DNA of 64,000 bases from Podarcis pityusensis (taxonomy: Eukaryota), in NCBI GenBank assembly GCA_964106645.2, contig OZ067051.1. One strand, written 5' to 3'. The position numbers and the translations under genes are program-made. This document shows positions 504 through 54,724 of the stretch, one piece after another (position 1 is the stretch's first letter; each line of letters starts with the position of its first letter). Below the pieces are notes generated by a model that was not told where the DNA came from, did no database searches, and was given only the letters and a program-made list of their open reading frames with translations.

Positions 504-660
504 CTTATACCTGGTCTGCTCCCGGTCGTAGATCTTCTTGAGAGACACCACTTTGGGGGAGAAAAAGTTTCCAAGTTTGGCCAGGTAGACCCCGTTCCTG
601 AGCCCCTCCTCCAGCTCCGTTGTGGGGGGCAACTCTTCATTGAGGCAGGCCTCCATCCAC
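504..660 (-). CDS. IQGAP1: IQGAP1 exon 3 (calponin homology domain)
   Basis: WMEACLNEELPPTTELEEGLRNGVYLAKLGNFFSPKVVSLKKIYDREQTRYK; TAG acceptor, GTAGG donor; 157 bp. Confidence 0.96.
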
Positions 661-21419: not shown

Positions 21420-21506
21420 ATGATCCACGAGCTGCTACTGGCGCTGCGCGGCTACACCGGAGGCCTCTTCGTCGCCGTTGGAGGCGGCGGCAGCGTCTGC
21501 CTGCAG
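21420..21506 (+). CDS. TUBGCP4: TUBGCP4 exon 1
   Basis: [29 protein letters not shown]; donor GTGGCG. Confidence 0.9.
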
Positions 21507-28210: not shown

Positions 28211-28250
<40 letters not shown>

Positions 28251-31200: not shown

Positions 31201-33409
31201 CATGACTTTCCTTGTAGACAATCTCCAGTACTACCTGCAGGTGAGCAGCAACACAGGTCTCAGGGGCTGAGGCTTTGGTGCTGCTCCTCCAAGGGATATG
31301 CATCAGTCAGTTCTCCCAGCAATACCCTAAATCTCCCACCAAAAATTGATGGTTGGAAATGACTGAAAACAGCAGGCAGTATATTCTCCCTCACTTTTCC
31401 TTATCCTCAGGTGGATGTTCTGGAGTCTCAGTTCTCCCAACTTCTGCAGCAGATCAACTCCACCCGTGACTTTGAGAGCATTCGACTGGCACACGATCAC
31501 TTCTTGAGCAATCTCCTAGCACAGTCCTTCATTCTGCTGAAACCAGTGAGTGATCCCCATAGTCTGTTTGCCTTGTGTCCCCAGGAGAAGAACTGGTCCT
31601 GTACGAACAGTCCAAATGCCCATCCAGTGCAGCACTCCTAGCTCACTTCAATGCAAACATGGCAAGAAGGAACTAAAGCAAAAGCCAGACCCTTGTGAAC
31701 ATGGCTGTGTTGCTTGGCCATGAGCACAACCAAAGCCCTTACCTGCTAAAGTGAATAATGAAGTACAGGTCTGTATAGAAAAGCAGGATAGAAAATAAAT
31801 GAACTGCAACTGTGTCAGTTTGCCTTCATCATGTGTTTTTTGGGGGGAGTGTCTTCCTGGTGACTTGGTAGCATTTGGCAATCTGGAGAAGCCTGTCAAA
31901 GTCCTTCCCCAGAGCACCAGGCAAGTAGGTATGTTCATTGGTCTTGGAAACTCATGTTTAGAGCAGCTTATGATGCTTGAACAGAAATTTCAGGCTTTGG
32001 TAGCTGCTGTGCAGTGTATGAAGATTTTTGTTTTGTTTTGTTTGATTGCATCAGCTCCATTAGACCTTAAGAATTGCTCTACTAAGCAAGAAGTGAAATG
32101 GTTTGAGTAAACCAGTCCAAATAATCCTGCTGAATCTGGTCATTATCTCAGGCTGCGGAAGGGCAAGACGAGAAGCATCTGCTCTGGTGAGGCCCTCCTG
32201 GGCCTTCATCTCCTTTCTGCTCTTTGGTTTTGCAGGCTTTCCACTGTCTGAATGAAATACTGGATCTATGCCATAGCTTCTGCTCACTTGTCAGCCAGAA
32301 CCGGGGACCATTGGATGAGCGGGGGACGGCCCAGCTGAGCATCCTGGCCAAGGTGGGCCTTGCACTTTTCTACCTGAAAAACATCGCCCAAAGCTTTTGG
32401 GGCATCTCTCCTGTGGATGCTGTTGGAAACTCAGAGCAGGCAGCTCTCTGATGAATTCAGCATGGGGTGGGGGAGGGGATAGGAACACAAGAAGTCTAGC
32501 CATTGCTCTTCCATGAAACTCATCAGAAACAGCCTTGGTCAGGCCCTTGTGGCATACTGGCAGCAACAGCTGGGGCCTTTCCTCCTCCAGGACAGCAATT
32601 CCCAAAGGGTGAGCGATGAGGTGGGGCAGTTGCCTGGGATGCTTTCTCCCCATATGGGTTCGAGTGGCCTTCAAGTCATCTCTGTTCAGCCCTTTCTGCT
32701 AAGGCAGAACCCTCAATTTATGGCTCATGGGTGCCGTTTACCTTTGCAGGGCTTCAGCTGTCAGTCTTCACTCCTTTTCAAGATCCTCTCCAGTGTTCAC
32801 AATCACCAGATCAATTCAGACTTGGCTCAGTTGCTGTTACGTCTTGACTACAACAAATACTATACCCAGGCTGGAGGCACCTTGGGCAGGTAGGCCTTGG
32901 CGAGTGCCAGGAAATCACACAAGCCCCTTTAGTTATATTTGTGCTGGTGGTGGGAGGTGGGGGGCTCTGCCTGAATGTGGACTCTTCTACAGCTATCCTT
33001 AGCCTGGGTTTCCTTGCCTTCCAGGGCTTAAGGTTTCCCAAGGACTGGGAATCTTTAATTACACAGGCCTGTTACTAACTAGAAACACACAAGGTCTTAA
33101 GCCTATTTGAGAGCTGCTGGTGAGAGGGATGTGATTAGGCATCATCTAGACTTTCTGCTGTTTCTGTTTTGGGACCCAGAAGGTGGGATATAAATGTATT
33201 TATAACCAGCTGTGTGCTATGTTAAAAAATGCAATTCAAACTTTGCACACTGTGGTCTGTAAATAATATGAAATTGGTTGTGTGTGCATCTCTAACAAGT
33301 AGTTTTGGCTACTGTGCCCAATTTACACAACCCTTCTCCCTTCTGCAGCCACAGAGCCCTTCCTCTAATTAACTGCCCCTTCTTTCTCTACAGTGTGGGA
33401 TTAGAATAG
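21420..33409 (+). CDS. TUBGCP4: TUBGCP4, gamma-tubulin complex component 4; complete, 18 coding exons, 2112 nt, ~703 aa
   Basis: MIHELLLAL... through ...[21 protein letters not shown]; all exons GT-AG with consistent phases. Confidence 0.97.
21600..21845 (+). CDS. TUBGCP4: TUBGCP4 exon 2 (extended)
   Basis: [31 protein letters not shown] followed by a Q/P/G/A-rich tail; donor GTGAGC. Confidence 0.88.
22459..22563 (+). CDS. TUBGCP4: TUBGCP4 exon 3
   Basis: [35 protein letters not shown]. Confidence 0.95.
23947..24000 (+). CDS. TUBGCP4: TUBGCP4 exon 4
   Basis: [18 protein letters not shown]. Confidence 0.95.
25863..25919 (+). CDS. TUBGCP4: TUBGCP4 exon 5
   Basis: [19 protein letters not shown]. 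Confidence 0.95.
26273..26352 (+). CDS. TUBGCP4: TUBGCP4 exon 6
   Basis: [27 protein letters not shown]. Confidence 0.95.
26572..26773 (+). CDS. TUBGCP4: TUBGCP4 exon 7
   Basis: [35 protein letters not shown]...[10 protein letters not shown]. Confidence 0.95.
27271..27436 (+). CDS. TUBGCP4: TUBGCP4 exon 8
   Basis: [46 protein letters not shown]... Confidence 0.95.
27675..28047 (-). mobile_element. Full-length Sauria SINE with TSD
   Basis: 15-bp TSD TATGGTGGCTCCATA at 27660-27674 and 28051-28065. Confidence 0.92.
28214..28248. repeat. (GT)n microsatellite
   Basis: Directly visible. Confidence 0.95.
28930..29054 (+). CDS. TUBGCP4: TUBGCP4 exon 9
   Basis: [41 protein letters not shown]. Confidence 0.95.
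29747..29797 (+). CDS. TUBGCP4: TUBGCP4 exon 10
   Basis: [17 protein letters not shown]. Confidence 0.95.
29945..30050 (+). CDS. TUBGCP4: TUBGCP4 exon 11
   Basis: [35 protein letters not shown]. Confidence 0.95.
30327..30434 (+). CDS. TUBGCP4: TUBGCP4 exon 12
   Basis: [35 protein letters not shown]. Confidence 0.95.
30734..30872 (+). CDS. TUBGCP4: TUBGCP4 exon 13
   Basis: ...[28 protein letters not shown]. Confidence 0.95.
31063..31240 (+). CDS. TUBGCP4: TUBGCP4 exon 14
   Basis: [26 protein letters not shown]...[11 protein letters not shown]. Confidence 0.95.
31411..31545 (+). CDS. TUBGCP4: TUBGCP4 exon 15
   Basis: [45 protein letters not shown]. Confidence 0.95.
32236..32352 (+). CDS. 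TUBGCP4: TUBGCP4 exon 16
   Basis: [39 protein letters not shown]. Confidence 0.95.
32750..32889 (+). CDS. TUBGCP4: TUBGCP4 exon 17
   Basis: [46 protein letters not shown]. Confidence 0.95.
33394..33409 (+). CDS. TUBGCP4: TUBGCP4 exon 18 (terminal coding part)
   Basis: Polypyrimidine tract + CAG, then (S)VGLE-TAG; corresponds to human SFGM*. Confidence 0.8.
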
Positions 33410-34664: not shown

Positions 34665-34849
34665 TCAACTGGGGACAGAATCAAGCTGATACTTTGGGTG
34701 TTTGAATCCAACTTTCTTCCCAGCAATGAGGCACTGGATCACCCACTCTTGGGTCACCACTGGCAGCTGTAGCGCTTCAGCACATTTCAAGAAAGCTGTT
34801 GGGCACGAAGCATCAGTCACCACGACATCAAACACAGCCAGACTCACAT
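34665..34849 (-). CDS. TP53BP1: TP53BP1 coding exon 25 (terminal)
   Basis: [37 protein letters not shown]...SVPS-TGA. Confidence 0.96.
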
Positions 34850-37800
34850 CTGTGGAAATAGAAAACAAGAATTGCCCTGTGTAGTCAAACCTTTCCTCTT
34901 GCTTGTTCACAGCACCAGATACTTGATCTTGCTGCCTTTGGAAAAGGATGGATGGCAGCTCCACACAAGGAAAGGGGTGAAGCAGCCAATCAATTCTTGC
35001 CCTGCCTCATCCAACTTCTCAGCAACCCTCTGGAATCTAAGTTAAAGCTCCTCCCACACCAGGCCTCTTTTCTGCACAGGGGGATTGGTATGTCTCAGTG
35101 GGCAACGGAGAGCCTCTTGCCAATATACCCGCCACAGAAACCAGCTGGCTGCCTTCCAGGGGCTTGTACCTTTGCTCCATGAGGCAGATTCCTGCAGTTT
35201 AACAGAAGCAGCGCCCCCCATCATGAGAATCTCAGACCAGAGCTCCAGGAAGTCCTGCTGCTCACTGGACACCAGAAGCACCTTCAGCTTACTGAAAGGG
35301 TTCTCACGAGAGTGCCTAGAAGGAAGCAAAGGTTAGAAGCCATTCCACTGCAAGGGAACTGGACATGCCACCCTGTTCCACCTGCACCAGGTGGGTAAGC
35401 TGCTCATGGTCCCTCCAACATTCATGGACTTACCAGTCCAGCAACCTCTGCTCCTGCAGGCTATAACCAGCTGGCAACAAATAATTCCGGTAGTTCTGCA
35501 GCTGGTTGGCATGACAACTGTCATGGACCCAGACGTGAGACACACAGGGGATTCCTCGGGCAAGGCACAGAAAGTAAATCCGGTTGCGGCAGTGTCTGTC
35601 TGCTATCAGGAAGCACTGGTAGGCTGCACTGCACTGGACAAAGGAAGTGGAGGCTGGGACCTGGGCTTCCATAGAAACACAAAGCCCTGGAAGAGGCTGC
35701 AGGTTCAGTATAAAACACCCAGTGTGGTCAAATGCTTATTTGACAACTAGCCAGCCAGGCTAACTGCAAAATGGAAGGCTCAGTACTGGCAGAAGTAGAG
35801 AACTGAGAAATGTGCCAATGGAAGGGAAAGAGGCTCTCTCTGCCTCTACTTCAAGCAGCCCCTATCAAGATCTGTCCCATTCCAAGAAGCATCATGGCCA
35901 GGCACCTCCTTTCCTCATCCCAGGTCTTGAAAGGAGAACAAATGACAATTCTCACTTGACAACCTGTGTGCAGGTGAAGCTGCCACCCGTCACACACCTG
36001 CCACCCTTGGACCACACCCAGAAAAGCATCAATTTCATAATTAAAAGGAAAACAGCAGCAAAGCACCAACACCCTCTCCAAATAAATCTCCACTGCCAGC
36101 CTGGGTGATGCTACTTCATGCATCCCCAGCTCTGGCTCCTGACCTGGCTTTCATTGAAGTCCTCCAGGATGAAACCACCTCCAGCTTGCAGCTGCAGTCC
36201 AATGTAGTGTTTGTTGTAAGGTGTTACCTCCAAGAAGTCTAGAAAACAGGATGAAGTTAGCAGAGTTAATTCTTTAGCATAAATAGAGCACTACACCTCT
36301 TCCCTTGCAAGAGGACTGTGAAATATTCCCACACAATCAAAATCTAAGATTTTATTTCTATTTTAAAAGCTGCATGTTGACTTCTTTTAAATGCTTGCTT
36401 CTGTCAATTTTTAAGTTAGTATTTTGATTTTTCTTTGTAAACTATGAATTTTGTTAAATAAAGAACATTAAAACAACTGCACTGAAATTCAGTTCAGAGA
36501 CTAAACATGATTAGGAACAGCTATTCACTTTAAAAATTATTCTCCACTGTTCAGTAATGTGCTCTAAGAACTGTTTTTATACTCAACAGAAAATAATACA
36601 ATTGACAAGAACGTGTGTGCAGCACAGCAGCAGATTATTTAGACATTTAAAGATGCCTAGAGAAACGCAGAAAGGTCTTCACCTAGTGCCAAGATGACAT
36701 AAGAGATAGTAGTAACAGGTGAGGAAAGTGACCCAAAGGGGTGTGCTATTGCCAAGAAAACCTTCAAGACACACCCATGTAATTAAGAGAAGGAGGGGGA
36801 ACCCAGAGAAGACCCTTCAGTGATGACCTCAGTACCTGGGCTGATTCATTCAGAAGGTGGTGGTCCTTCAAAAATCCAAGCCCCTTGCTGCAAAGGGTTT
36901 TAAAAGGTAAGCACCAACACTTGGAGCCATGTTCAGAAATTGACTGTTAAGTTAGTGAAATTATTTTCTGAGCCCTAAAGCGAGCCCCAAATGGTAGCTG
37001 TAAGGAGCATGAAAGTTGTAAGAGAGATCTGCAGCTCATTCCGAAATCACGGATTTCTCTTAGAGGGCCACAAGATGGCAAACATGTTCTGCCCCACACT
37101 TGGCAATTCCTTATCTTTGGGGCTTCTAGGACCTGGAATAGCAGAAGGCATGACTGCCACCTGGTATGGCTCCTCAAGTAGCCTTCAAGGGATTTCATAC
37201 TGTCATGTTGCCCAACAGCCCTCCTGTGATGTGCTTGCACACTGGCTGGCAAGGTGCAAGGATACAGCCAGTCTTACCAAGTCCCAGGTTCAACTATCCC
37301 CTCAATAAACTAACTTTGGAAAGTGCAGTAAGATACTGGCTTGTTGACTTCAAGTTCTTGCAGCCCCACAACTTGCCACTTCCTTAGCCCTTGTAGGCAC
37401 ACCACTATCCTGCAAAGAGGACAGAAACCGCAACTAGCAGAATCCCTACCAGGGATCCTTGGCCAAGCTGCCTTCCTTTGGCCCCCATGTGAACAAGATG
37501 CTTAACTAGGTGGGCCCTCTTGGGTCCCTTCCTAGTTCTGCCTTTTCTGTCACCCGCTGGAGTTTCACCACCCTAAACCAGATTCAGTCAACGAGGGCCA
37601 CCCCTGCCCCCAACAACCTCCCTGGAGCAATGGAGTGCTCACCTTCCTCTTCGCTGCTCACTGCAGGCTCCTGGCAACTGGAGAGTTTATCTGTGGGGTC
37701 TGCCATTGTGAGGAGAAAGGCATAGCCCAGAAAGAGAGTCTTGTTGTGGGGCATAGGCCCCCATCGGTCATCTGGTGCCGGGATATCTCCCAAGTCCACT

Positions 37801-40800
37801 CCACTGACAGATGGGCTCACTGCTTCCCTGGAACAGGCAGCCCCTGTGGAGGGAGGGAGGAAAATCAAAGTCCTGTGGCTGCCTCCTGACAGCAGGTCAG
37901 CAGCCTCAACCTAGAATTTCTCTCATGGAGAGAGAGGGGAGCCTTGATCCTCCTGGTGCAAGAGCTCAGCTCCAGCTCCTCTGGTTTGGGAGGAAAGGCT
38001 GGAGGAGACCAAGAAGGGAAAGTCTGGTCCAGGGAGAAGAGATGCAATGCAAGGAGACATAAAACAGTCTGACCTGGCTTTGTAGGGGTTGCCCGCCGCC
38101 CTCGTTTGGCAGGGGATCTCTCCTCTTCTGAGGCAACTAGCTTCCTCTTGCTAGACAGCCTGTGTGGGGTCTGGGGGCTCTCAGGGCCCTTGCGGGTGGG
38201 TGTTGTGTTGTTGGAGGTGCTGGGGGAGCCAAGGTTGCGCCTCTTCCGCTTTCCTTCCACCAGGTTATCTAGCCCCACAAGGAGAATGTTGTTAGCTCCC
38301 ACCTCAACATGCAGCAGCACCAAGCCCCCCCCCCCGCATGTTTTCTGCAGGGTAGCAGAAGGAAGTCACTTGCGCCTCTTAAAACTGAAGAGTTTACCCA
38401 AGGCCAGCACCCTGCAGCTCCTGCCCTCAATTAAGAGGTTCCTAGGGGTTCCCATTTCTCTCGGCCAGACCCACAAGGCAGTTGCCCACAGGCTGCTTAC
38501 CAAGGCTGATGTCAGCCGCCTTTGTCAGGGGCATGACGGGTTCGTAGGGGCCCAACCCAAATTGCTCTCGGAGCCGATTCCCTTGCTCTAAAGACAAGAT
38601 GACTGCTCTCCGCCGGTACCACTTCCGCTGGCCCTCCTTCTCAATGCAATAGAACAGCTCCCCGGCCTCCTTCCGATGCCCCTTCACTACCCCTGCAGCC
38701 AAGGCAGAAGGCATCATAAGGGCAGCTCACAGACTGGGACCCAACTCTCCGCTACCGCCCACCCCAAACACTGCAGGTCACTTGCCAGCCAGGCAAGTTA
38801 CCTGCGCTGAAGTATTCGTCCTCCGAAAGGGCCGTCACCTCTGTTTCCAGGGGGAGAGGGTCGCACAGCAAGATGTCTTTGCCCGGAACATCACATTCAT
38901 AGCCATCGTCAAAGCGCAGCTTATATTTGACACCCCCTACATCCTGTGTGATAGTCCCAGAGTAGAAGTAGCCATTCGAGGACCACTTTGCCACCACCCG
39001 GAGGCCCACAAAGCTGTTCGCAGAAGAGGAGGTGGCGGCAGAGGAAAGCTCTGTGCTGGTAGAAACCCCCAGACGCTCTTGCAAGGGGATTTCAGGGGAG
39101 ATGCTGCGGTCCTGCCCCTTCAAAGGGCGATGCGTGTGGCAGTCCTCTTCTGGCAAGGCTGTGGTTGACAGATCCTCCACAGCTGGCAGGCTGGCCCTGC
39201 AGATCCAGGGAGAGAAACAGCTGGAGAAGGTGCAAGGACCTTTAGCTCTTGCTACTCCACCCCACCAGGGTCACCTCCCTCATCAGCATCAGCTGACCTT
39301 CACCACGCTACCTGGCTCCGGCCGATCGCGATGTGAGGCGGCCCCTTCGCCCTCGTCTGCGAGGAGTTGGAGGGGCTCTGCCACTCCTCTGGTTGATCAC
39401 ACCTTGCGCTTCCTCCTCACACCCCCCAGGAACTGCTGCATGGTCAGGCTGGACTGGAGACTGAGGCTGGCTGCCCCCCTTCCTAGGGCTAGGGAAACCA
39501 AAGGCAGCGTTAACCTCTGCACAGCCAGCCTGCCTGCCAGCCACAATGCCCTGGAGGCCCCACACATGCTCCCAGGGTCATGGGCACAAAGAATTTATCC
39601 CTCGCATTTCAAGGTAAACAGCAAAGCCCAAATAAAGCTGCTCACAAGGCAGCCCAACATGATTTGCCGCATTGTTCCCCCAGTTTGAAACATCACTCAA
39701 TACAACACCAACCTTCAAGTATTTAAAACCTTCTTGACATCAAAAATATTAACTCGCCAACTGTGAATAAATTCAATTCGTTTTAGAACCCATGGCCTTT
39801 TAAAAGTATAGCACTGGCTTTCAGTTTGGAAACTGGTTAAAGAATATACTGACAGTCATATTCATGCCCCGCCTGAAACAAAACACCAAAGAATGCAAAA
39901 TGGCCTCTCTCTCTTCCACCCTGCTGCTCCCCCAAAGTGAAGCCTTCCTCTGATGTCCCTTTCCCAGAGGCCCTGCACCCACCTGAGCTTTCTGACCCCA
40001 GGGAAGGCCAAGTCTCCAGGCCCGGCTCCTTGGCAAGGTCTCCCTCCTCTCAGAAGAGTGCCTCCTTGCCCAGAACTTGTCCCACTGTGTGTGACGGACA
40101 AGGCACTGCTCCCTCCACTGGACATGCGCTGGAGGCCAGAGGCCTTGGATGAGAAGGAGCTGATGTCACCAAGGTCTCCAGAGGCAAGCGAAGAAGAGCC
40201 TCCCGTGCGAGAGGGGGAGACGTCCACCTCGCTCTCCTGGCACTCCATGATGGGGTCCTCTCTCTCCTGAAAGAAAAGCAGACTGGGATTCAAGGGAGGA
40301 AGGGAAGGCGCCAGGTGCCAGGTACAAGGGGAGAGCTGCCCTAGGACCAGCGCTTTCAGATCCCAAGAGGGATCCATCCACAGGCAAGTCCCTTTCAGCC
40401 AGATACATGTAGGGCAGGGCAAAGCTCCCAGAGCAGTGCTCTTCCCACAACAGAGCTACTTTCTGACATTCTAAACAGGAAACTCTTTGGGTATCCATCC
40501 TGTTGATGCTCAGCTCTATCAGAGAAAGAGAGAGAAAGTGCCGCACCCTTTAGCCACAAGGCATTTTATTCCACTCTCCTCCGCTCAACAAAATAAAATA
40601 CTTACCTTTAAGGTCAGAACAGGCAAAATGATGTTCTTCTCGCTGGAGAAGGCACTTCAAGCGCCCATCTCAAAAGAGCAGAGCTGAACTGCGGAAGCAA
40701 ATCCTGACAAAAGCTTGCCTACTCCAAGGTTCCCTACCTCCCCAAAGCTCCTTTAAATTTTCAAGAAGCAATTTAAAAATAAAACCTGCCTTAACAGTAT

Positions 40801-43800
40801 TAGCAGCCAGAGAAAACCCAGAGAAATAAGCTGATGGTGAAAACACCCCACACAATGCCTGTCTGATCTTGAAAGAGTCTTGCAGGAAACTCTGGAGTGT
40901 ATAGTCCAGTTGCAGGAAAGACAGAAAAATGTAAACCTAAACCAAAACACTTAGATATACGCTATGCACATGTAAAAGATTGCATTTTAAAAGGATGGAT
41001 CAAGCTTAGGTATTGTTCTACAGGGTTTATAATTGCATATATTTTTACAAAGCCTTTAAATTTAAAATGCTGACTATGGAATTGGGTCTTACTGAGTAAA
41101 AGCAGAAAAAAATTGCCAGGTGTTCAAGACAGAATTTCAAGTTAGGAGGGCTGCTGGAATATTCTAGAAAGAACTTGAGAATTGGTCTTGAACAGGTTGC
41201 TAGGCAACAGAAAAATCTCCCCAGCAACAGGTGCCTTTATTAAGGGCATGTGGTCAATAAAGGTCAGTTAGTGTGTAAATGAACAAAGTTGTAAATGAGT
41301 CAGCAATTGAGTCTCTGGTCAGACGGCTAGAGGAGAAGGAATTATATGGTTTTATTAGTTTTATTTGACCGGTGTAATTTTTTTGTAAATAATAAAGATT
41401 CTCTGTAAAAGAAACTCTGCTGCAAGTCTTAAAAAGAATACAACGCAAGAGTAGATGCTCACACATCAACAACCAGCACCAAATAGGTAATTTGTGATCA
41501 CAGTGCCTTAAGGTTCACAGGTCCAACACTCAAAGGTGCAAGATAGGGAGCAGGATTTGTGGCTCCAAAATGGCCTGGATGCATATGATATGGTGTGTAT
41601 TCTCAAGTAGGGGACCAATACGGCAAACTCAGAGAAGCAACTGGCAAAGCACAAGAAGCCCTAGGAAACCAATGAAAAGGAGATGGAGGCCTAGAGACAA
41701 CAAGCGGGCAAGTGACTGTCCCAAGATCACATGGGATAAGGTCAGAGATTTCCCTTTCTGAGGTCCACACACCCATCTGGCAGCCCAAAGGAACAAGGGC
41801 AAGCATGCCCTGTCCGCTACGGGAATGAACTTGTGGGGATTTAATGATGAATTCTCCTGTACAGGAGTAGGTAGTGCTCGCAATACCTCTATGGTGGCCA
41901 ACTGATAACTGCTGGTGTTTGACAACTCATTTTGAGTAACAGGTTTGTCTTGCTTATTTAATCCAAAGGAGAAAGCATTTTGAGTCTTATTCAGTGTTCT
42001 CCAAAACAGCAAAATTATTGGTTGGGAAAAGTAGGAAAAATTCTCTTTAAAAAACGCAGAAACAGTTTTCTGAACTGTCCCGGCCTTGACATCTCTCGCC
42101 TTACCTCCACTACCTTGCGTTCCACTTCTGCCCCATCCTTGTAGTAGATGTCTGTGATGAGTCGTGTGACAACAGTTCGTACTTCGCGGATGGTCCGTAT
42201 ATGACGCCGGAGGGCTCTGCCTGGGGGCGGGCGAGGCAAATCAAACCCTTCCTCGTGCTGAAGAAAAGAAAAAGGCAGAAAGTTTTCAGAGATTCCTCCA
42301 CAGCACATTGCTGTTTGGAATGAAAGGGGAACATCACTGTCAGAGGAACAGGAGACTGCATTATACGGAATTATACAGCACTGGTCAATCCAGCTCAGTA
42401 CCATCTGGACACTAACAGGCAACAGCAGCTCTCCACTGTTTCTTAGCTCCAATCCCATCAGCACTCACCACCTGAGCTTGCTCTTAGAGGCAGGAACGGC
42501 TTTCACAGAGCTGCAAATGGCACATAAAAGGGCAACTAAAAATGGCTTGGTGACAAGAGAGGCCTCCTGCAGCACCAGAATTATCCAATACAAGCAACTG
42601 GCAGCAAATGCAGGACATGCCCCAAAATGCATCTGGACAATCATGCCCTCCTGAAATTCACCGTCACAGGACAGGGTCATCACATGCACTTGCAGAAACC
42701 ATTCACCTATGATGGCAATAGTTTGAGATTTCTTTGTCAGACAGCTCTGCCTGATCTGTTTGACATTTTTACTGTAATTGTGCAGTTTTCACCTATATGG
42801 CATGTCGTGACATATGAAATAAATGTTTATAAATATATTTAAATATAAATCTCATACAGCCAAACCTCAGCTCCCGAAAACCCAGAAGTAACTGCTCCGG
42901 TTTTTGAATGATTTTCGGAAGCCGAACAGTCTTCCGGAACAGATTACGTTCGATAACAGAGGTTTGACTGTATTTATATATAAACAAACGAAATACATTC
43001 AGAGGCAGGGATAGCCATTGCCACCCTTGTGGGCTTCTCACTAGCACCTGGCTGATCACTACTGCGAGGGGGACTTGGTGGACCTTTGGGCTGACCAATC
43101 AAAGTGCTTCTCTTGATGAGGCTGCTTCTTCCCACCTTGCTCAGAGTTGGAAAGTCTGGGGGAGGCACATGTGGCAACTGCCACCTCCCACTCTAAAAGC
43201 TGAGACCAGGAGGTAGTAGATAATCCTTCGCCCCTGCCACAGGCAGCAGCACCTCTCTCCCCCCTCCCCCTTTTCCAAGTACACGATCCAACTCCCTCTC
43301 ACCTGGTTGTGCTGGGTCCCTGGCGCATGCCCAGCCCTGGCAGGCCTAGATCCATGGTCCTCTTCCACCTGCACTTTAGTGTCCTGCTGTCCAGGCCACA
43401 ACCCAGCCGTGCTGGTCCCCACCTCCACCTGGCCAGTAGGCACTGTCTGTGTGGCTGCCGACGTGAATTCCGTTGGCCCTTGAAGGAACTCTGCCACAGC
43501 CTGGGTCCCCTTGCTGCTGGTGCCAGATTTTGGCGTTTGAGTTCCATCATTCCCTGCAGCCACCAGAACGGAAGCTGCCTTTTGGGGGGCCCTCTGTTCT
43601 TTTTGCTCCCGAGTTCCTGCTGTTTCAACTTCCATGGCCTCTCCCTCCTCCGCACAACCCACTGTCCGCTTAGCGCTCAAGCCAGAGTCCTGGACTGGTC
43701 CACAACCCAGGGGCACAAGCCTTCGCTGGCTCTGCCAGGTTGCAGCTGGCTCCTGCTCCTCCTGGGAACTTGGGAAATTGAACAGGTCACCCCTGAAAGC

Positions 43801-46800
43801 AATCAGAAAAGCATGAGAGGAGCTCTGCCAGATCACAATTAATGTCCACCCAAATCCAGTCTTCTGTCACCAGCAGGGGCAAGTCAGATATTCCTAGGGA
43901 GCCCAGAAGCAGATACAAAGGCAAAGTTCTCCCTTACTAAGAGATTAGCTGACTCTCAGCCTGCAGCCCCATTTGGAATGACTGTGTTGAGAGACCTTTT
44001 GTCCATGGCTTTGTCTAGCCTACCCATTTAAGACTAAGAGGGTCTGCGATTTGGAGTCTTCCCTTTAATCCCTGTACATAAACCATCAAGTATACAAAGA
44101 TTCATATTGCACAGAGACTGCATAGGCGTATTTTTAGTTTAGGTGTATTTTTGCTGTAGTCAAGTATATCCAATGACTCAACAAGCCATGCATGCGTATG
44201 AACACACACACAGGGACACAGCATTCAGAAAAATATCCCGCAATCCATCGCATTTGCGTGATGCCAACTGTCCCAACAAGCTGCCTGGCTGTCCAGGAGA
44301 CCTGCTCAGAAAAAGGATCTTTCAACTGCTGCTGTTTTGTAGCCCTCACCCTGCAAGACCAGCTGCCCCAGGACAAACACTGCCCACTGAGCATGTCCTA
44401 GTTGTATCCTGCTTGCCTCACAACTGGCAATAGGCCTGGCACAAGCATATGATTCCAACAGGCAGAACTTGGGGTGGCTCAGCAAAGCAAAGACGCACCT
44501 TAGCCAGGGGAGGGATTTCCCAGGAGTATCTACTGCACACAGAGGGAAGCAGCACATGGCCTGGGATGAGTTATTAGTTCATGTGGAAGGGAAGTTGCAC
44601 AGAGACAGCCCTAGAGACAGCACCAGGGAGGCCTTCCATGGACTTGCCTGAACAGTGGACAAGGCAGCTCAGGGCATTGAGCCTTGTCTTCTTCACGCTG
44701 TACTTCACAGACTCGAGTGAAGACGGATGGCACCTTCCGGGAGCTATAGGCAGAAGAGAGAAACAGGCTCAGAAAGGACCAATCCTGCCAAAGAGATAGC
44801 TAAGGCCTATGAGCTTGCTAGCAGTGAGGCAACCTGGCCAGTATTTGGTGGCCCCAGAAGGACCTCCAGTTCAGAAAACCCCTCAGATGCCATTAAATAC
44901 CAACATCCTTCACCTCCCTAGCAGCAGCTCAGAGTATCTGGAAGGATGGAGGGAGCAAGACACGGTTTCCTGCCCCTCCAAATACCTCTCTGGGGCTCAG
45001 CCCTCTCTGACATGGGCAGTTCACCCACGCATGGGGAAAACTGATGTAAGCAGCCCAGTTGGGCCTGACTGGATGGCAGGAGGATGGCACATAAGCACAC
45101 ACACCCCTTTCCCAGCAGATGCCATTCACCTTTGTCACAAAGGGCTTAAGTACCAGTACCTGCCTATTACCTGGAAACAACTCCTGTGACAGACCCGTTC
45201 TTCTTTTCACTGGATGTGGGCTCTGGGGGCAAAGAGGAAGGCATTAGAAGCATTCCACCCCCTCCCAAACACTTTGGATCAAAAGTCACCACCCAGTTAG
45301 AAAGCCTTGCCATCTTCTTCACAACTTGCCCAGGACAAGGACCACCTCTTCCTTGCCTAAAGGGCCAGGTTTCTGCAAGTGTTTCCAACAGCACTGCCAA
45401 ATCAGCCCTTCCCAGGCAGAGATGGCATCATGAGAACTATAAAGACTGCTAGTCAAGTAGTCAGTACTGTTTGGAGTCACTAGTCCAGGGCAGGGGACCA
45501 TCGCTCCGCAACTGCTCTTGCACTGAATCTCTTACTGTCCAGGCTGAAGGGCAGGGACTCGTCACTCTCTTCCGTCACAGGGGTCACAAGGTTCATGCGC
45601 AAGGACAGCTTCCCCTGCTCCTCACAGGCGGCCTCAGCGCTCCCTTTGCCACTCTCCTCCATCTCAACAGAGGTCAGAGCACTCTCCACTGTCACATTGT
45701 TGGTGCCCTCAGCTGTGACATCGCTGGTTGCTATGGTATTATCCGGGCAGTTTCCAGCCTCTGAAACAAGCAAAGCAAGATGGCAGGTTCACCAACAGCC
45801 ACCCAGGCTTGCTGGAAAGAACCAGCACAGAAAGCCTCTTGGCCACCCCCAAGCAGATGGCAGCTCTGCAGCACCAGAATCTGCCTTAGCCCTTGGGCCA
45901 ACTGCTCTAACATCAGAGAGAGACCAAATGAGCTGGGCTCCTAATCCAAAGCTATGTGGGTTGTACTTCTGCAAGGCAGCCAAAAAGAATTTGGGCCCTT
46001 GCACCTTCCAGAATTTTGTGGAGGAAGCCACAGCAGCAGTTGGAGCTGCATCCAGATTTGCTTCAGATTATAACAGTGTAGACAGCAACTGTCCACACTT
46101 CTCAGCTGCTCCAAGAGCAGAGTCTGTCATACCCCTTGTGGTCTGTAGCTGCTTCCAAATGGCAGAGGAAGTGGCAGAGCACTTGCTTTGTATGCACAAG
46201 GTCCCAGGTTCAATCCCTAGCAGTCCCTCCAGTTAGAGGGATCAGTCAGCTGGTGCTCTGAGATCCTCTTCACACTTGAAGCCCCAGCTGCTGCCAGTCA
46301 GATATGACAATAGAGCAAAACGAACAGGCAATATGGCGCAATGTAAGGTCATATCTTCCAAGCTCACACCGTTCTGGCAATATGTAAACAGCTACCACAG
46401 GGCCTCCCTCCCACTGGGGTTTTGCTTTACTGATGGCTGCTTGGATCAGTCCCCTCCTTGCTCTCCACCAGCACACACACCTTCTGAAGGCAAAGAGAAG
46501 GACAAAAGATGGCCACTTTGGGAAGGCTGGAAGGCAGTTGGTGCCCATCTCCATTACTCACAGAAACCCCACCCCACGTCTCCTACTCACCAATAGGAGT
46601 GCTGTGTCGCCTGGGGCCTTTCTTTAGCTGGCCAATGTGAGGTGGTGTGATGCCTGTCAGAGGCTCAATCACATGCTTCTCCTTCAGCAGGGCGAGATGA
46701 AAGGGGGTTCCTGGAACAAGGTATTACAACAGACAGGTTGTGAGCTCATATTCTGCTACTAGGCACCCTCCTTGCCATAAATTCTCGGCAGCTAAATGGT

Positions 46801-49800
46801 CAGCCAAAGGCCCCAACTGGAAGAAAACAGCATGGCATAACACTACCAGGCAAGGTCATCTCCTTTGGTGATCACTCGTAGCCGAGTAAGATTGTCTTCC
46901 ATAAACACAGTTTTAACAATGAGTCCAGAGAGTGAGACCAGGCAAGGTGAAGCAGGCAAGAAGATTCCTTTGCAAATCCTGTGCCCAGGCTTCTTACTTC
47001 CTGCCATGTGCTGCATAGAGGCTGGTACAAGGCACAGATACCGGAGAAGTCTGTTTTATCGGGGGGGTGGGGGTGGGGGGGGTTAGTTTCTAGTCCAGAA
47101 GGTTGAAACCATGGGCAGGGCAGAGCCCAAGTCCCCCGTGCATAACATCCCAGCTCCTCCCACCTATGCTAAACATATTGTACTCTAGACAGGCACTTAC
47201 AGAACATGCTGTGCTTCTCCAACAATGTAATCACTGAAAACAGATAACAGTAACTGCTGAAAGATAGCAAGGTGGGGGGTGAGACCTTGCCAGTCATCAA
47301 ACCACAGAGAGCACTAGAACTCTGTTACAACAGCCTGGAAGGCTCTCACTGCAGCTGCAAAGGAGTCTGAGCTGATTTGAATTATGCCTGTACATGGTGA
47401 CTTCCATTTCTTGTCTGTGAACTGCCCAGAGAGCTCTGGCTATTAGGCAGTCCACATATGTACTTAATAAGCAATAAATAAAGGAGAATTTAAAAGCCAA
47501 CAGGCCAATGCAGCCTCTGTGAGAACAGATGCAATGCACCCTTCACACACCAGACAGGCACAGAGGCAGGAAGGGAACAGCCTCCATCTCAGTCTATGTT
47601 TATCATGCCCTTTGGCAACCACTGGAGAGTATTTCAAGGAAATAACTCACACAATAGGGAAGGGACTAGGGAGAGGAGGGGGCAAGAGAAATTATCTTCT
47701 TAAGCTGCAAAAGGCTACTCTCCTTTCTCTCTCAGCCACATTGGCTCAAGCCTAGGCACCCTGGGTCACTCCACAGGGATGCTTTCCAATGATGCAATTC
47801 TACTGCTGCTCTTACTCTCCAGAACCACTTACCGCTGGGCAGGCTAGCAGGTGGCTCAGGACCCCTCTGGCACAGCTGCACCTCTCTCTCCAGCCCACGT
47901 GGCTTCTGCTGGCTCTCCATCTGGTCCTCTGCACTCCCAGGATGGGATCCCTCTTCCAAAGTCACTGCTGGTGCTTTCTCCTTCCCAGGCAAGGGCCCCA
48001 GCTCTGAATCTTCCCTTGCAGTAACTGATGGGCTCCCTGGAATGGCAGCAGACTTCCTACTGCCTTGCTCTGGAGGTGCTGCCGCTGCTTGGCTCTCTGC
48101 AGTTTCATCCTCCTTGGCTGTTGTTGGCACACCACTCCCTTCCCCCTGGGGGGGCAGCAGTGGCAAGCTCTCCTCCTCCTCCTGCACACTTCCCAAGTTG
48201 TTTCTGCCTGGAGAGATGGCAGCAGGCAGCCCCACTCCAGGGGCAACGCTGGACCTCACCTGGGACCTGCTTCCCTCCAGCTCTGGTTGGGAGTCAGAGA
48301 GCTTCAGTGTCACCCCAGGGCCGATCCTCAGGGACGCCTCCTCCTTGGAGTCTTCCATGGGGTCTCCTTTTAAGTTTCCTGGATCTGGGTGTGCAGGCTC
48401 TCCAGCTGTCTGGAGCACATTCTCAGAGTCTTCTCTGGCTGCAGCAGGTTCCACATGCTGGTCCACCTTTTCTTCCTGAGAGTGAGTAGAGTGAAGGCAA
48501 GACCTTCCATCCCTCAGCAGCTCAGCTTCTCCCTGCGCTTCCCCAGGCGTTTCTGGGACAGCTTCACATTCTGGCTCCTGAGACCCCTGGCACAAGAGGT
48601 GGCCCTGACTTCCAAGGTCATCTCCAACTCCAACTTGGGCAGTGTTACCTCTTCCTGCAGGCTGCCCAGTTGAGGCATGGCTGTCCTCATTAAACCGCTG
48701 CTGCTCACTACATCTACCATCCAAGCCAAGCTTCTCCACTGGAGGACCATGAGCTTCCATGGCTGTTTCCTCAGGCTGCACAGCCTCAGTGGACTGGCTG
48801 CACTCACTGGCAGACAGCGCCAATAGGCAGGCCTCACCCGAGGGCCATGACAAGGGGCCCTCCACAACAGATGCAGGTGCCTCAGGGACTTCAGAGCTGT
48901 CTGCTGGCAAACTGATACCACAATCATCTCCTTTCTCTGTCTGTGCCTCAGGCCCTTTCTCTAAGCTTGGAGTTGGGAGGAAAGTGTCCTAAAACAGGGG
49001 GAAACACAAACACATTGGAATATGACAGCTCCACACCTGAGATTCTGCAACCAGGCCAGCTCTCAAGAGAACCAGAAGTAATTCTTGACACTGCAACCAA
49101 GACATACCAGCAGGGCAATCACAAAGCAAGATACTTCATAAAGTATTGCTTCCTGTTTTCCACAACCAACATGGTGGCCAGGAGATTTGCCCTTCTATAC
49201 ACAAAGCCAGGCTAACGCTTTGTGAATGTCTCGAAAATCCTCCTATGACAAAAAAGCACAAGCGAAGGAAAGGATTGTCAAACTGTAGGGCAAGAGGCGT
49301 GGGGGCCTCCTTACTTCTACCAAGGATGAACGCAGCACAGAGAAGACCAGTCTCAGTGCTGGGCACCTTCTGACCACTCACATGGGAGAACTCTGGTTGT
49401 GATGGTATGGGAGTGAATGCTGGAGTAAAAGCTGGCGCATCTTGAGCGACAGGTGTAGAGGACTGAGGAAGCCCTGGAGTCCGAGTCTCCTTTGGCTCTT
49501 CTTCTTGCTTCCCTCCTCCTCCTCCTCCTGTTGCTGCTGCTGCAACAGAAGATGTGGATAAATTAACGTTATTGCCTTAGCAGAGAAAGACAGCCTTGTT
49601 CCTGCCACTGGAGCAGAACATTTCACTGCCAAAAAAGCTGAAGGGTACCAACTGGCCCTCTGCACCCCTCTGTCAGTGCTCAAAAAGAGGAGGGGCCTCC
49701 ACATTCGCTCAGAAATGAAAGAAAAGAAACCTGGGTCACCATTACTAAGTTGTCTTTTTGAACACCATAGCTTGGGCCAAGGGCTACCAAGGCCTCCAGC

Positions 49801-52800
49801 AGAAAGAGTTGGCATACCTTCTGTTCCCTGTTCTGTTGGGCTTCTTGGAATGATGAGGGGTACAGAATGTGAGATGCCGGGAGATGGCGTAGGAAGGCCT
49901 GAACCACAACTACAGAGAAAAAGAGATCACTCAGTTGCCTCACTGTCTGCATATGCAAGGTCACAAGAAAAAAGCAAATGAGCTAATCTATTCCAGAGAT
50001 CTGAAGGCCGAAGCCAAGGCTCAGCTCACAGGCACAGACCACATTTGTACCTCCCACGGAACATGAAACACAAACACAGCACTCGGTTGTGTGTCTCATC
50101 AGGGAACAGAAAGGAGAAAAAGGAAGGCAACAAAGACCAACGAGCGCAGAAGGAGTAGAGGCAAAGAAAGCTCAGTTACTTTGAAAGGTGGACACAATTA
50201 CAACACTATCAATGAAAGCATAAGAGCCAATCAATACAGGGATAACCAACTGCGCAACTGACTCAATTAGTGAATTCAGAAGGCAAGGAAGTAATAAGTG
50301 GATCATCAATTAGCTGAGAAGGAAAAAGGTCATAGTGGAAGAGCACCTTCTTCATATGAGGAAGGCCCAAGGTTCAATTCCGGGTTGCATTTCCAAGCAC
50401 GGCTGGGAATGCCCCCCATCTGAAATCCTGGAAGGCTGCTGCCAGTCAGTGTGAGCAATACTGAGCTAGATGGACCTGACTCAGTGTAAGGGACCTGACT
50501 CAGTGTAAGGCAGCTTCCTAGAAGCAATTATTCAGGGAAACAGGTAACAAAAGCAACCTGAGCAGGCTTGTTACTTACATGGAAAGAGGTCCCTGTCCAG
50601 AGAGATGAAGGACATGCAGAGAATCGGCAGGAGTGCACACTGGAGAATTTGCTGCTTCCACTCTGGACACAGCACTGTCACCATCTGGAACAAGAGGCAA
50701 TTAAAATTAACAAAACCATTTAGCAGTTTTGTCAAACAACCCAATGGATACTGCCTTGAAAATCTGTCTCCCAGCTGCACTGATCTTTTCCCTACATCGG
50801 AGTCAATTTTAATACCTTGTTGCAACTGCTCAAAATTGCAGAAGACCACCGACAATTTGTGGTGTGCAAAAATATGACTGTAAATTCAAGTAAACTCAAC
50901 AGGGATGGAAAATGTTTTACGTTCCTCAGCAACACCATCAAATATTGATGACCGGCTGAGATTTTCCCCAGAGAGCTGCTATCTCTAAATCTAGAGAAAT
51001 TTACTCCTGGGCACCTGATTGGCCACTGTTGGAAGGGCAAATAGTATGTCCTTCAGCCACAGTGGCAGCTGGCAGGTTTTAATGCTGTCACCAAAGAATG
51101 ATTTTGCATATTTGCCTGAAAACTAGAACTCTCAGGGTGCTGAACGCAAGTCAGCAATGCAACTGATGAGCTACGTTTTGAGCAGCCCATGCTAGAATCT
51201 GACAACCCTGTACAACTTGTTCAGCACTGGTGATCTGTGCCACTACATATTCAAAGCCATCTGCACAAACAAAAAAGGCAAAATTTGAAGAATTCAAAAC
51301 ACTAAGACATTTTCAAAATGCAGCAACAGCAAAGGGTGACATAGAAACACATCCGTTGAAAAGGCAACTTTATCAGTGCCACTGGAATTCCCATCATCCA
51401 CAAAGCAACTGCCTACCATTCCTCCCACAGCAACTGTGTGTTGTGCATAGGAGACATACCCTAAGCTGTCTATGTGGTCCCATGAACCTATGTAGCACTA
51501 TCTAGATAGTAATCAAGTAGGAAACCTTCCTTTGCTATCAGGATAGGCAGAGCTTCAGCAAACTGCACCTGCTTCCCCCTCATGGGTCGCAGGGGCCACG
51601 GCACAGGCATGCAGTCTGTTTTCACCTGTTGTGCTGCTCTGGCCAAACATGTCCTCCTGAGTAGATAAGACATCAGCATCCTGTGTATGCCACCCAGAGG
51701 GATCCGTCCCTTGTGGCCTTCTGTCAAGTAGATGGCAGGCAGAAGTTGGACTCCTTGCAGGTTCTTTATGGAACTGCAGAATTTTTGGGGTGCTGCTGGG
51801 AACATAAGTGTAATCAATATTCCCCAGGGTGTCATTGTTTATATTTGTTGCCTGCTCTTCACTGTAAGGCCCCAGGGTGGACTACATCTTGAGAAAAATA
51901 ATACGACAAGCTGAAAGAATGCCACACAAACAAGCTGATAGCTTCCCTGGGGATTAAAAACAGGACACAAAGCATGCACAGAACTTGCGGAGTGGAAGAA
52001 TGTTTGCTTTTGTGCTGAGCTTTGCCAAAGGTGCAAACAGAACTTTGCTGCTGGGCCTGAAAAATCCCAGTGGGAATGGATATAAGCTACTCCACCATTT
52101 CTTTAGGTAATGCAGAAGAGAAAAGAGTCAGGGAACTTTTTTTCTCATTCAAATGAGGTTTAGTAAGAGTGCCAGCAGCACCTTGGTGCAACCCCCTCCT
52201 GTAAAATCCCAACGGGAAGGTCTGTCGCTTCTTTCTTTCCTTCTTGGCCAGGAGGCAACAGCAAGGCACCTCCGATACTTTTAGCCGAATCCCAACTAAC
52301 AGGAATGAAAATATCTTTCCTTCACAAAGAACAAGGCAGAAAGGTAGTAGCAGCTTCTCGCCTACCAGCAGCAGGAATGTTCGGCACATGTGTGACAGCA
52401 AGAAGGACTTCATGGAACCACATGTGCTTCACAGCTGGTTTAATGGGCAAAGAAACTGCACCCCCTACAGAAAGGGCAAGCTCTCCATACCCCCTTTCCT
52501 GAAGGTTCAACCATGCAACAAGTTAGCCAACAAGTATGAGAGGTGAAAGCAGATATTTACCTATCAGGAGAGTCACTCCCAGACTTTGTCACTTCATCTG
52601 GATCTGCATGCAGAGCAAAAAAAGCATCAGGAATTGGTGCTTCACTTGAAATACCAGAGCACAACTGCACTATGTTGCATTCTAAGGACTTTTCCAGAGA
52701 ATTACTAAATCTGATTTCGATCTAGGTGCCAAGTCAAAATCTGCTTGGATTCAGGGCTGATGGCATTCCCTGTATGACCTATTATCTATTATGGGCTTTG

Positions 52801-54724
52801 GGTTTTTTTGCTAGTTTTATATGTATTTTATTGGTAATTTTATTATGTACACTGCTAAGATTGCACCTAACTTAAATTAATGAACCTAGATCACTCATGT
52901 CTACTAATTTCAATGGGTCTATTCAGAGTAGTACTAACAATGGATACAACTCAATGTTAGCTTAGAAGACAATCTCTAATGGAGAAGACAACAGGATAGC
53001 AGTGAGTGCCAACCCAAAATATACTTATAACATCACATCCAACCACAATCCAATCAGCATTACTATCTTCAAAAGATTTAGGAACATAAGAAGCTGCCTG
53101 ATATGTGATCAGATTATTTGCCCCCCTAGTCTGGGACAGTCTATTCTGAGAGCAGCTTCCCAGGGCTCAAGCTCAGTCAGGCTCCCTTGTTTCTGCCTGC
53201 AAACTACATGCTCTACTACTGGCAACTACAGTCCCTCAATTGCCTTGCAGGATTACTGTGTACAAAAGTACTGTTACTCCAGAGACTCAGTTTATTGGTA
53301 AGTACTAGGCGAACAGAACTGTAAGCCTCCCATCTGTCACCCAGAAGCAGCCATTCCATCCAGCTGCAGAACAGCAGGAAGGGGAAGTAACTGGCCTCTC
53401 TCTATCCCATCCAGCTTGTTGTAAGAATAATATGTTTAAAACCTGGTGCCTGAGCTTGCTTTCCCCCACTCACCCTGCTGCCCAGTGCATGTCTTTTAGA
53501 CTGTATGCCCAAGGGAAGGGACCGCTTACTTTGTAAGCCATTCTGGAAGCTTTTGCCATCTACATTGTAAACTGGGTAAAATGTTCTTCAAATGAATGAA
53601 TGAACAAATAAGGATGATTTAAAAGAAAGAAGGTTCTGTTGGGGCCTGAAGTCCTTTTGAGGCAGTGTGGGTAGTTTCGCAGAAGGGTTGGAGTGAAGTT
53701 TTCCTATCCCAGAGGAAAGGGCGACTCAGGAGGCCGCCCCCACTTCACCTACCGCCTTTGGAATCCTCCTCCTGCTCCTCTTCTTCCAAGGCCACTTTGG
53801 GTTGCAGCTGCTCCTTATCACTAACCACACTAGCTGTGGAGTCTCCTTCAAGGTTCTGGCTCTGGGAGAGCTCCAAAACACCGAAGCCCAGCTGCGACAT
53901 GCCTGATTCTAGCATCAGAAGATAAGAACTTCCTCAGCACATGTGGAAGGGCTCCAGCATCCAAAGGGAGGAAATGGGCCCGGCAAACAACCCCTCCCTC
54001 TCCCACCCCGCCAAGGTTACTTGTGAACCCAAGAGGGCTGCAGACAGTCACGAGGGGACCCCGACCCCCCCACCGTTCAAGGACAGCCTCCAGCGAGAAC
54101 AGGCGCGGGCTGTGCAGCCCCCCCCCCGGCTGGATTCTCAGCAATGGCGAAGGGGCAGCCCCCAAGGGCCGTCCCCAGCTGCAGCAGGCGGAGGAGGCCA
54201 CTTACCTTCCGCGCAGAGCGAGCCCGGTGCAGCAGCAGCAGCGCCGCCGCGGGGGTCGTCCGCCGCCCTGCAAGGGAGACAAGCAACGTCTCAGAGGGGT
54301 CAAGCAGGCCGAAAGCCCGCCCGCGGAGAAGGAATGGCGGTGCCCACCTGGTGTTCCTGGCGAGCGGCGGCGGCAGCTGCTCCAAGACCTGGCTGAGGAG
54401 GGCGCGCGGCGAGTCGGAGGCCGGCAGCGGAGGCTGCAAGGGAGCGGGCCCAGAGCCCCCTGCGGGACCCCGCTCAGCCCCCTGGCCCTCCTCCTGCTGC
54501 TCCTCGGGGCCTCCTCCTGCCGCCTTCGCTCCCGGAAGGACCCGCGGCCCATCCGCCTCGTCCTGCGCCCCTGGTCCCCGCCACCTCCTCTTCAGGCCGG
54601 GCAGAGCCTGCGGCTCCTCGCCGTCGTCCTGGGCGGAGTCCGGCTCCGGCTGCGAGTCCTCCACCAGCAGGCAGGGCGCCGACGGGCAGAAGCCCAAGTC
54701 CAGCGGGCTCCCCGCGGGGTCCAT
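34665..54724 (-). CDS. TP53BP1: TP53BP1 (53BP1); complete, 25 coding exons, ~1853 aa
   Basis: [16 protein letters not shown]-terminus, LELSQSQ, AATQT LC8 site, oligomerisation domain, GAR motif, tandem Tudor, UDR, NLS and tandem BRCT, ending ...[11 protein letters not shown]; exon phases consistent. Confidence 0.97.
35170..35315 (-). CDS. TP53BP1: TP53BP1 coding exon 24
   Basis: [37 protein letters not shown]. Confidence 0.96.
35434..35633 (-). CDS. TP53BP1: TP53BP1 coding exon 23
   Basis: [58 protein letters not shown]. Confidence 0.96.
36144..36238 (-). CDS. TP53BP1: TP53BP1 coding exon 22
   Basis: [31 protein letters not shown]. Confidence 0.95.
37643..37843 (-). CDS. TP53BP1: TP53BP1 coding exon 21 (BRCT1 start)
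   Basis: [20 protein letters not shown]. Confidence 0.95.
38074..38268 (-). CDS. TP53BP1: TP53BP1 coding exon 20 (UDR end, NLS)
   Basis: [11 protein letters not shown]...[19 protein letters not shown]. Confidence 0.96.
38501..38692 (-). CDS. TP53BP1: TP53BP1 coding exon 19 (Tudor/UDR)
   Basis: [27 protein letters not shown]...[10 protein letters not shown]. Confidence 0.97.
38802..39196 (-). CDS. TP53BP1: TP53BP1 coding exon 18 (Tudor)
   Basis: [21 protein letters not shown]...FDDGYECDV...EDEYFSAG. Confidence 0.97.
39312..39488 (-). CDS. TP53BP1: TP53BP1 coding exon 17 (GAR motif)
   Basis: SPRKGGSQ...[10 protein letters not shown]. Confidence 0.92.
39983..40266 (-). CDS. TP53BP1: TP53BP1 coding exon 16
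   Basis: [36 protein letters not shown]. Confidence 0.95.
42105..42257 (-). CDS. TP53BP1: TP53BP1 coding exon 15 (oligomerisation domain)
   Basis: [35 protein letters not shown]. Confidence 0.96.
42857..42970. mobile_element. Short Tc1/mariner-like MITE
   Basis: CAGCCAAACCTC ... GAGGTTTGACTG with TA TSDs. Confidence 0.75.
43303..43792 (-). CDS. TP53BP1: TP53BP1 coding exon 14 (LC8-binding region)
   Basis: [10 protein letters not shown]...TSAATQTV...HNQ. Confidence 0.93.
44648..44743 (-). CDS. TP53BP1: TP53BP1 coding exon 13 (GC donor)
   Basis: [20 protein letters not shown]...PLFR; donor AG|GCAAGT. Confidence 0.85.
45171..45222 (-). CDS. TP53BP1: TP53BP1 coding exon 12
   Basis: [17 protein letters not shown] (human KPATGERKNGS). 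Confidence 0.88.
45536..45760 (-). CDS. TP53BP1: TP53BP1 coding exon 11
   Basis: [13 protein letters not shown]...[25 protein letters not shown]. Confidence 0.93.
46591..46710 (-). CDS. TP53BP1: TP53BP1 coding exon 10
   Basis: [39 protein letters not shown]. Confidence 0.93.
47833..48988 (-). CDS. TP53BP1: TP53BP1 coding exon 9 (large acidic exon)
   Basis: [10 protein letters not shown]...[12 protein letters not shown]...VPETPGE...; 1156 bp open; donor GTAAGT. Confidence 0.93.
49382..49575 (-). CDS. TP53BP1: TP53BP1 coding exon 8 (alternative in-frame acceptor at 49539)
   Basis: ...[28 protein letters not shown]; donor GTGAGT; acceptor ambiguous. Confidence 0.8.
49818..49909 (-). CDS. TP53BP1: TP53BP1 coding exon 7
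   Basis: [27 protein letters not shown] (human PFIVPSSPTEQ). Confidence 0.88.
50331..50520 (+). mobile_element. tRNA-derived SINE (related degenerate copies at ~12390-12535 and ~46165-46350)
   Basis: GGTTCAATTCC B box; GCTGCCAGTCAGTGT...GAGCTAGATGGACC...AAGGCAGCTTCCT tail. Confidence 0.65.
50579..50684 (-). CDS. TP53BP1: TP53BP1 coding exon 6
   Basis: ...[20 protein letters not shown] (human STPATTLHLLQLSGQ). Confidence 0.88.
51626..51795 (-). CDS. TP53BP1: TP53BP1 coding exon 5
   Basis: ...[18 protein letters not shown] (human VLSTQEDLF); NAGNAG acceptor. Confidence 0.85.
52561..52603 (-). CDS. TP53BP1: TP53BP1 coding exon 4 (short, poorly conserved)
   Basis: [13 protein letters not shown]; CAG/GTAAAT; supplies the required phase 1->2 switch. 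Confidence 0.65.
53753..53908 (-). CDS. TP53BP1: TP53BP1 coding exon 3
   Basis: [20 protein letters not shown]... Confidence 0.88.
54206..54267 (-). CDS. TP53BP1: TP53BP1 coding exon 2
   Basis: [20 protein letters not shown]; CAG/GTAAG; phase 2->1. Confidence 0.8.
54348..54724 (-). CDS. TP53BP1: TP53BP1 coding exon 1
   Basis: [27 protein letters not shown]...[16 protein letters not shown]; donor GTGGGC. Confidence 0.85.

Follow-up and report, generated by a model that had tools for sequence, protein, structure and literature searches.

The phosphate-binding lysine of the 53BP1 BRCT pocket is replaced in lacertid lizards and an amphisbaenian

Introduction

Can a vertebrate do without the lysine by which the tandem BRCT domain of 53BP1 holds the phosphate of gammaH2AX? 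The question is raised by a 64,000-nucleotide stretch of DNA from the wall lizard Podarcis pityusensis (contig OZ067051.1 of assembly GCA_964106645.2; the whole stretch is called the window here), in which a first-pass annotation had noted an isoleucine codon at the place of human K1814. The human structure shows T1737, the backbone of M1738, K1773 and K1814 holding the phosphate and R1811 binding the C-terminal carboxylate of H2AX, with a Kd of about 1.4 uM; K1814E abolishes gammaH2AX binding despite K1773 being in place, R1811E does so too, and human cells with either substitution are impaired in pATM foci and in the late repair of heterochromatin (PMC4688034). These data bear out the role of phosphate ligand that the annotation gave to K1814, and K1814M, which it took to abolish gammaH2AX binding, is indeed described as blocking it (PMC5065530).

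The consequences reported for human cells are graded. K1814M rescued Nutlin-3 sensitivity and IR resistance as the wild type did, keeps USP28 binding and enhances p53 binding, which was read as ligand competition; R1811A weakens USP28 binding, and N1845 and D1861 are likewise given roles in binding p53 and USP28 (PMC5065530). Foci of K1814M still form, with a dimer retention of 20% vs 30% (PMC7666136), and a preprint describes PI(3)P binding at the same pocket and a slowing of early foci by R1811A/K1814M (10.64898/2026.04.18.710733). Downstream of MDC1, the marks H4K20me2 and H2AK15ub recruit 53BP1, and the BRCT-gammaH2AX contact is described as dispensable for this step (PMC4688034). The literature is in conflict over this contact, which supports pATM foci and heterochromatin repair on one account (PMC4688034) and, as described in another, has no effect on radiation survival or p53 output (PMC5065530).

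Results

The window holds an ordinary single-copy, intact and spliced TP53BP1 of a Podarcis wall lizard (Table 1). Annotated Podarcis proteins map along positions 54724-34668 in 23 tblastn blocks, which may miss small exons; the exon that holds the isoleucine, numbered 23 in the annotation, is the third-last coding exon. Reading frames are open and splice sites canonical across the gene, this stretch has a single match in its own genome, the exon is 100% identical to Podarcis proteins, and the gene groups with lacertid TP53BP1 in a tree of named relatives. Tandem Tudor, UDR and C-terminal tandem BRCT all lie within the one gene, together with a motif that we presume to belong to the oligomerisation region. 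GCP domains were found by Pfam on the + strand beside it, in a gene that we take to be TUBGCP4, the neighbour of TP53BP1 in human as well. Near the start of the window lies a calponin-homology exon that presumably comes from IQGAP1, which it resembles.

Table 1. Features of the window, with positions counted from its first nucleotide.
Feature	Position	Strand	Basis or remark
Ile codon ATT at the K1814 column (phosphate-binding lysine, BRCT1 helix alpha2)	35577..35579	-	alignment, reads
Asn codon AAC at human T1812 (Thr of the R-T-x-K motif)	35583..35585	-	fixed in 5/5 named lacertids
Arg codon CGC, equivalent of human R1811, kept	35586..35588	-	
Arg codon AGA at human Q1808	35595..35597	-	fixed in 5/5 named lacertids; Gln in Rhineura
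Third-last TP53BP1 coding exon, 200 nt, AG/GT ends; second half of BRCT1 and linker	35434..35633	-	also encodes the N1845 and D1861 equivalents
Preceding exon, with kept K1773 equivalent	36144..36238	-	TPYNKHY at 36224-36204
FLLTMAD with kept T1737/M1738 equivalents	37698..37718	-	
Last two coding exons (BRCT2) and stop codon	34665..35315	-	
TP53BP1 coding span	34665..54724	-	tblastn with annotated Podarcis proteins, Pfam PF09038, motif positions
Tandem Tudor of TP53BP1	38991-38502	-	
UDR region of TP53BP1	38269-38237	-	
Oligomerisation-region motif of TP53BP1	42158-42132	-	role presumed
Gamma-tubulin complex component gene	about 21400-33200	+	tail to tail with TP53BP1
Calponin-homology exon	333-725	-	

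The ATT codon is in frame and encodes Ile at the human K1814 column: in gapless alignments of the exon to human 53BP1 (chains in 1GZH, 1KZY and 5ECG), this Ile faces the Lys of RTRKY. That Lys was set to 1814 on a mammal-like reference, and on this scale positions 1737, 1738, 1773, 1811, 1845, 1861, 1883 and 1887 carry T, M, K, R, N, D, N and L, matching the residues named in papers. The substitution is thus as the first-pass annotation had read it.

We found the same codon in independent material. Four of the 23 sequencing runs listed were compared with the window. Run X2, which may be the source of this DNA, spans the stretch with one contig that differs from it once, in the intron, and run X16, from another organism and another study, gives a contig with 0 differences over 35565-35637. 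In contigs of X16 and X18, 36144 directly abuts 35633, with the GT..AG intron removed; for X18 and X19, which differ from the window at one unplaced point each within 35565-35637, the splice evidence alone was counted (a joint in X18, loose ends in X19). We guess X16, X18 and X19 to be RNA, none of the runs listed being on record as such, and their contigs also cover most of the intron at 35634-36143 at substantial depth beside the spliced forms, a pattern that fits a retained intron, pre-mRNA or DNA alike. An assembly error, a rare allele or a decaying paralogue has a negligible chance of explaining the codon, given the single genomic match, the motif RNRI shared by the annotated proteins of P. 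muralis, P. raffonei and P. lilfordi, the independent contig with identical codon and spliced joint, the open frames and canonical splice sites, and the conserved neighbour that we take to be TUBGCP4; error and paralogue were rejected on these grounds, and the annotation was right to doubt a base-call error.

Of the pocket residues, Podarcis keeps T1737, M1738, K1773, R1811 and L1887 but neither K1814 nor T1812. As regards the features of a phospho-reader, the Ser/Thr in beta1 (T1737), R1811 and the 53BP1-specific K1773 are present, whereas the Lys of helix alpha2 is Ile and the Thr/Ser two places earlier is Asn. Among 150 distant representatives the T1812 column holds T in 136 and S in 6, one or the other in 142. 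The role of this Thr is presumably to prop up the beta1 Ser/Thr, by analogy with BRCA1 T1700. The account of the pocket given in the annotation included neither T1812N, the second change in the motif, nor the kept K1773, the second phosphate-binding lysine. It had described T1737, R1811, N1845 and D1861 as retained, and all four are present, the last three forming part of the p53/USP28 surface; D1861, however, is not simply retained, as this column (region 35436-35438) is Asp in eutherians, lacertids and Hemicordylus and Glu in most other vertebrates sampled.

The domain as a whole appears sound. Of 166 conserved columns, 24-27 are changed in lacertids against 14-32 in other squamates, so that general decay of the domain was rejected, lacertid divergence lying within the squamate range. 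Among the 142 columns that 26 other lepidosaurs conserve, seven carry a change fixed in lacertids (1764, 1777, 1808, 1812, 1814, 1864 and 1915), and these changes are not significantly enriched in the pocket (P 0.16 for a second pocket hit among the seven). The P. lilfordi domain was modelled with AlphaFold on a 14-row alignment to a mean pLDDT of 87.4, and Foldseek placed the model in the tandem BRCT fold, with 5ECG as the best match (E 2e-39, rmsd 1.9 A), although such models carry little information on point substitutions.

Changes at other pocket positions were seen here and there among relatives. T1812N recurs in Hemicordylus (P0012; with R1811C), in Heteronotia (P0215; alone) and in Periophthalmus (P0282); R1811 is changed to Q in 3 tinamous, in 6/131 other bird records and in Emydura, and to C in Hemicordylus. 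K1773Q occurs in Anolis and Elgaria, and T1737S in every snake covered. The R1811 changes in several lineages fit poorly with a rule that the USP28 surface is always kept.

The loss is not peculiar to one species, as the annotation, which wrote of this lizard, had presented it, but is a trait of a clade. Taking one protein per named species, mapped to human numbering, we found no Lys at 1814 in 6/6 named Lacertibaenia, where the residue is always hydrophobic: Ile in P. muralis, P. raffonei and P. lilfordi, Met, the residue of laboratory K1814M, in Lacerta agilis (P0004) and Zootoca vivipara (P0198), and Leu in the amphisbaenian Rhineura floridana. K1773 is kept in all six. The other squamates (n=28) comprise 26 with K, one with Q (Candoia, a boa) and one without coverage, that is, non-Lys in 1/27 covered; a Crotalus horridus fragment and one Elgaria isoform miss the column and were excluded from the counts. 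Lys is universal in the tuatara, 15 turtles and 3 crocodilians (19/19) and in mammals (16/16), ratites (4/4) and the further bird records (131/131, some species more than once), while tinamous have T in 6/6. Seven jawed anamniotes have K and two teleosts do not (T in Brachyhypopomus, P in Periophthalmus); in cyclostomes the residue is E in three lampreys and S in the hagfish. Of the best 150 distant representatives at 50% identity, a set that extends well outside vertebrates, K is found in 129 and another residue in 19, with 2 uncovered. All these are counts among the matches listed, which are best hits, and conserved sequences are therefore over-represented; no teiid, gymnophthalmid, second amphisbaenian, Gallotiinae or Eremiadini protein was among the best matches of the protein searches.

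Since Lys is kept in most lineages, the 1814 column is normally constrained, and the alignment across vertebrates that the annotation had proposed shows other residues to be uncommon in non-mammals, though recurrent. The recurrent losses (tinamous, Candoia, two teleosts, cyclostomes) point to a contact that may be dispensable; several of the losses outside lacertids carry a second pocket change. The tinamous (P0211, P0038, P0212, P0158, P0175, P0160) have K1814T, to which Crypturellus and Tinamus add R1811Q, in a domain where 4-5 of 166 conserved columns differ (two tinamous scored), a cleaner natural loss of the pocket than that of the lizards, with ratites as controls. The cyclostome pocket is heavily changed (P0272, P0399, P0273, P0274): lampreys carry the charge reversal K1814E together with Y at 1773, and Petromyzon and Myxine have H at 1811.

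In a tree of 42 Tudor-to-BRCT sequences, whose alignment includes the trait column and leaves out 50 of the 92 named rows, Rhineura and the lacertids form one clade (support 95/87), and a K/non-K label changes three times (Lacertibaenia, Candoia, tinamous). Rhineura is regarded as sister to Lacertidae, with a split calibrated on a 64.2-million-year fossil and placed much earlier by others (PMC2719621). Lys and ATT do differ by two substitutions, as the annotation stated, and these are most simply two single steps. The Met codon ATG is one base from AAG (Lys), from ATT (Ile) and from CTG or TTG (Leu), so that a loss by way of Met takes three base changes and separate losses take at least four, which makes a single loss through Met the simplest history. 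Lys would then have become Met once, before lacertids and amphisbaenians diverged, with later changes from Met to Ile in Podarcis and from Met to Leu in Rhineura, and T1812N may have been added in lacertids after the pocket had fallen idle. We infer this path from the genetic code, the relatives being known at the protein level alone, and the presumed common origin draws on one amphisbaenian and no teiid.

On the ligand side, the Podarcis H2AX (L017) ends TQASQEY-stop, the one of 18 H2A-type matches to end in SQEY, and a change in the ligand was rejected because the tail is SQEY. Two exons that we take, by their sequence, to be those of MDC1 (L021, DRIRRTVKFLC) and PTIP (L020, KVTRTVKFLT) carry the full R-T-V-K motif. 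With the H2AX tail and both motifs intact, there is no sign of abnormality in the mark or its main reader, and the change appears confined to 53BP1. No TRIM28/KAP1 was found in the Podarcis genome with the sole Pfam accession searched, which is the TRIM66 B-box. We also observed three H2A copies with a long Ala/Lys-rich C-terminal tail (L003-L005; G000:C2:109.27 Mb) and two divergent H2A genes (L014-L015; G000:C4:75.72 Mb), one of which (L015) ends SQEL, an H2AX-like motif.

Discussion

We consider it probable that the tandem BRCT domain of these lizards no longer binds gammaH2AX, or does so much more weakly, and that the loss is tolerated as that of an accessory contact under weak selection. 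The absence of K1814 together with the presence of R1811, N1845 and D1861 matches the mild separation-of-function allele described in human cells, which is why we read it as loss of an accessory contact. 53BP1 would still reach breaks through the MDC1-RNF8-RNF168 marks read by its Tudor domain and UDR, the direct contact with gammaH2AX would be an accessory whose loss is bearable, and the BRCT domain, which in Podarcis probably still folds and binds p53 and USP28, would stay constrained through its role with these partners. The prediction for Ile leans on the direct data for K1814E, a charge reversal, plus K1814M as described. The K1814M binding data reportedly come from Kleiner 2015. That Lys has persisted through very long stretches of animal history means that for most lineages the contact is not neutral; here its value must have been bypassed or forgone.

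The pocket might, however, still work, with K1773, T1737, R1811 and the new Arg 1808 holding the phosphate and gammaH2AX binding staying near normal, a reading that we find quite unlikely. K1773, kept throughout the Lacertibaenia sampled, also contacts the phosphate in the human structure, Q1808R is fixed in lacertids, and the lizard MDC1-like exon has an Arg at the matching place (DRIRRTVK), so that these kept residues and the nearby positive charge may leave some affinity. But human K1773 rescues neither K1814E nor, as described, K1814M, and the Arg and the loss of Lys do not go together, since Rhineura, tinamous and Candoia lost Lys without Q1808R and Ahaetulla combines Q1808R with Lys at 1814.

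The change may instead have been favoured, a closed pocket freeing the BRCT domain for p53/USP28 or for a non-phosphorylated ligand and so retuning p53 signalling, which we regard as distinctly improbable. The rise in 53BP1-p53 interaction caused by K1814M in human cells, interpreted as ligand competition, would agree with it, as would the all-aliphatic states of Lacertibaenia (I, M, L) and the repetition of the loss in unrelated lineages. However, M, I and L are one base apart and could co-occur without selection, other lineages carry T, Q, P, E and S, and R1811, needed for USP28, is itself altered in the tinamous, birds, turtle and lizard named above.

Tolerated loss of an accessory contact thus remains our preferred reading. 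It indicates no new pathway, and the phenotype to be expected of K1814 loss in lizards is mild. The existence of whole clades with a blocking substitution, which in two species is identical to the laboratory allele, argues that vertebrates can manage without the contact, and such clades offer natural pairs for a direct test (lacertids against skinks or anguids, tinamous against ratites), in cell lines too. Late repair foci of lacertids may differ from those of mammals, which calls for caution. A bolder proposal, which we think unlikely to hold in full, is that lacertids and amphisbaenians, and separately tinamous, are natural 53BP1 separation-of-function mutants that have lived for at least 60 million years without direct gammaH2AX contact, the loss being perhaps favoured through a shift towards p53/USP28. 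If true, such clades would be whole-animal tests of the gammaH2AX contact and of PI(3)P binding at the same pocket. We found no report of a natural loss of K1814 in the open-access literature searched by title and the start of the abstract; the sequences are public, and the loss appears to have gone unremarked.

The nearest known counterparts are the human K1814M and K1814E mutants (PMC5065530, PMC4688034, PMC7666136), in which the same column of the same domain is changed. Like the K1814M mutant, the lizards keep R1811, N1845 and D1861, and Lacerta agilis and Zootoca vivipara share Met itself. Unlike the laboratory mutants, the lizard change is natural, fixed across species and, in Podarcis, to Ile; it is also combined with T1812N, Q1808R and N1883D/E, and is known here from sequence. 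Among structures, the best matches are those of the human 53BP1 tandem BRCT with p53 or gammaH2AX (5ECG, 1KZY, 1GZH; 68-70% identity, rmsd 1.7-2.3 A), compared with which the lizard domain keeps T1737, M1738, K1773, R1811 and L1887 and has K1814 and T1812 replaced. MDC1, PTIP, BRCA1 (S1655/G1656/K1702) and Crb2 have the same fold and pocket layout as 53BP1 (PMC3380633, PMC4728184) and, unlike Podarcis 53BP1, keep the lysine.
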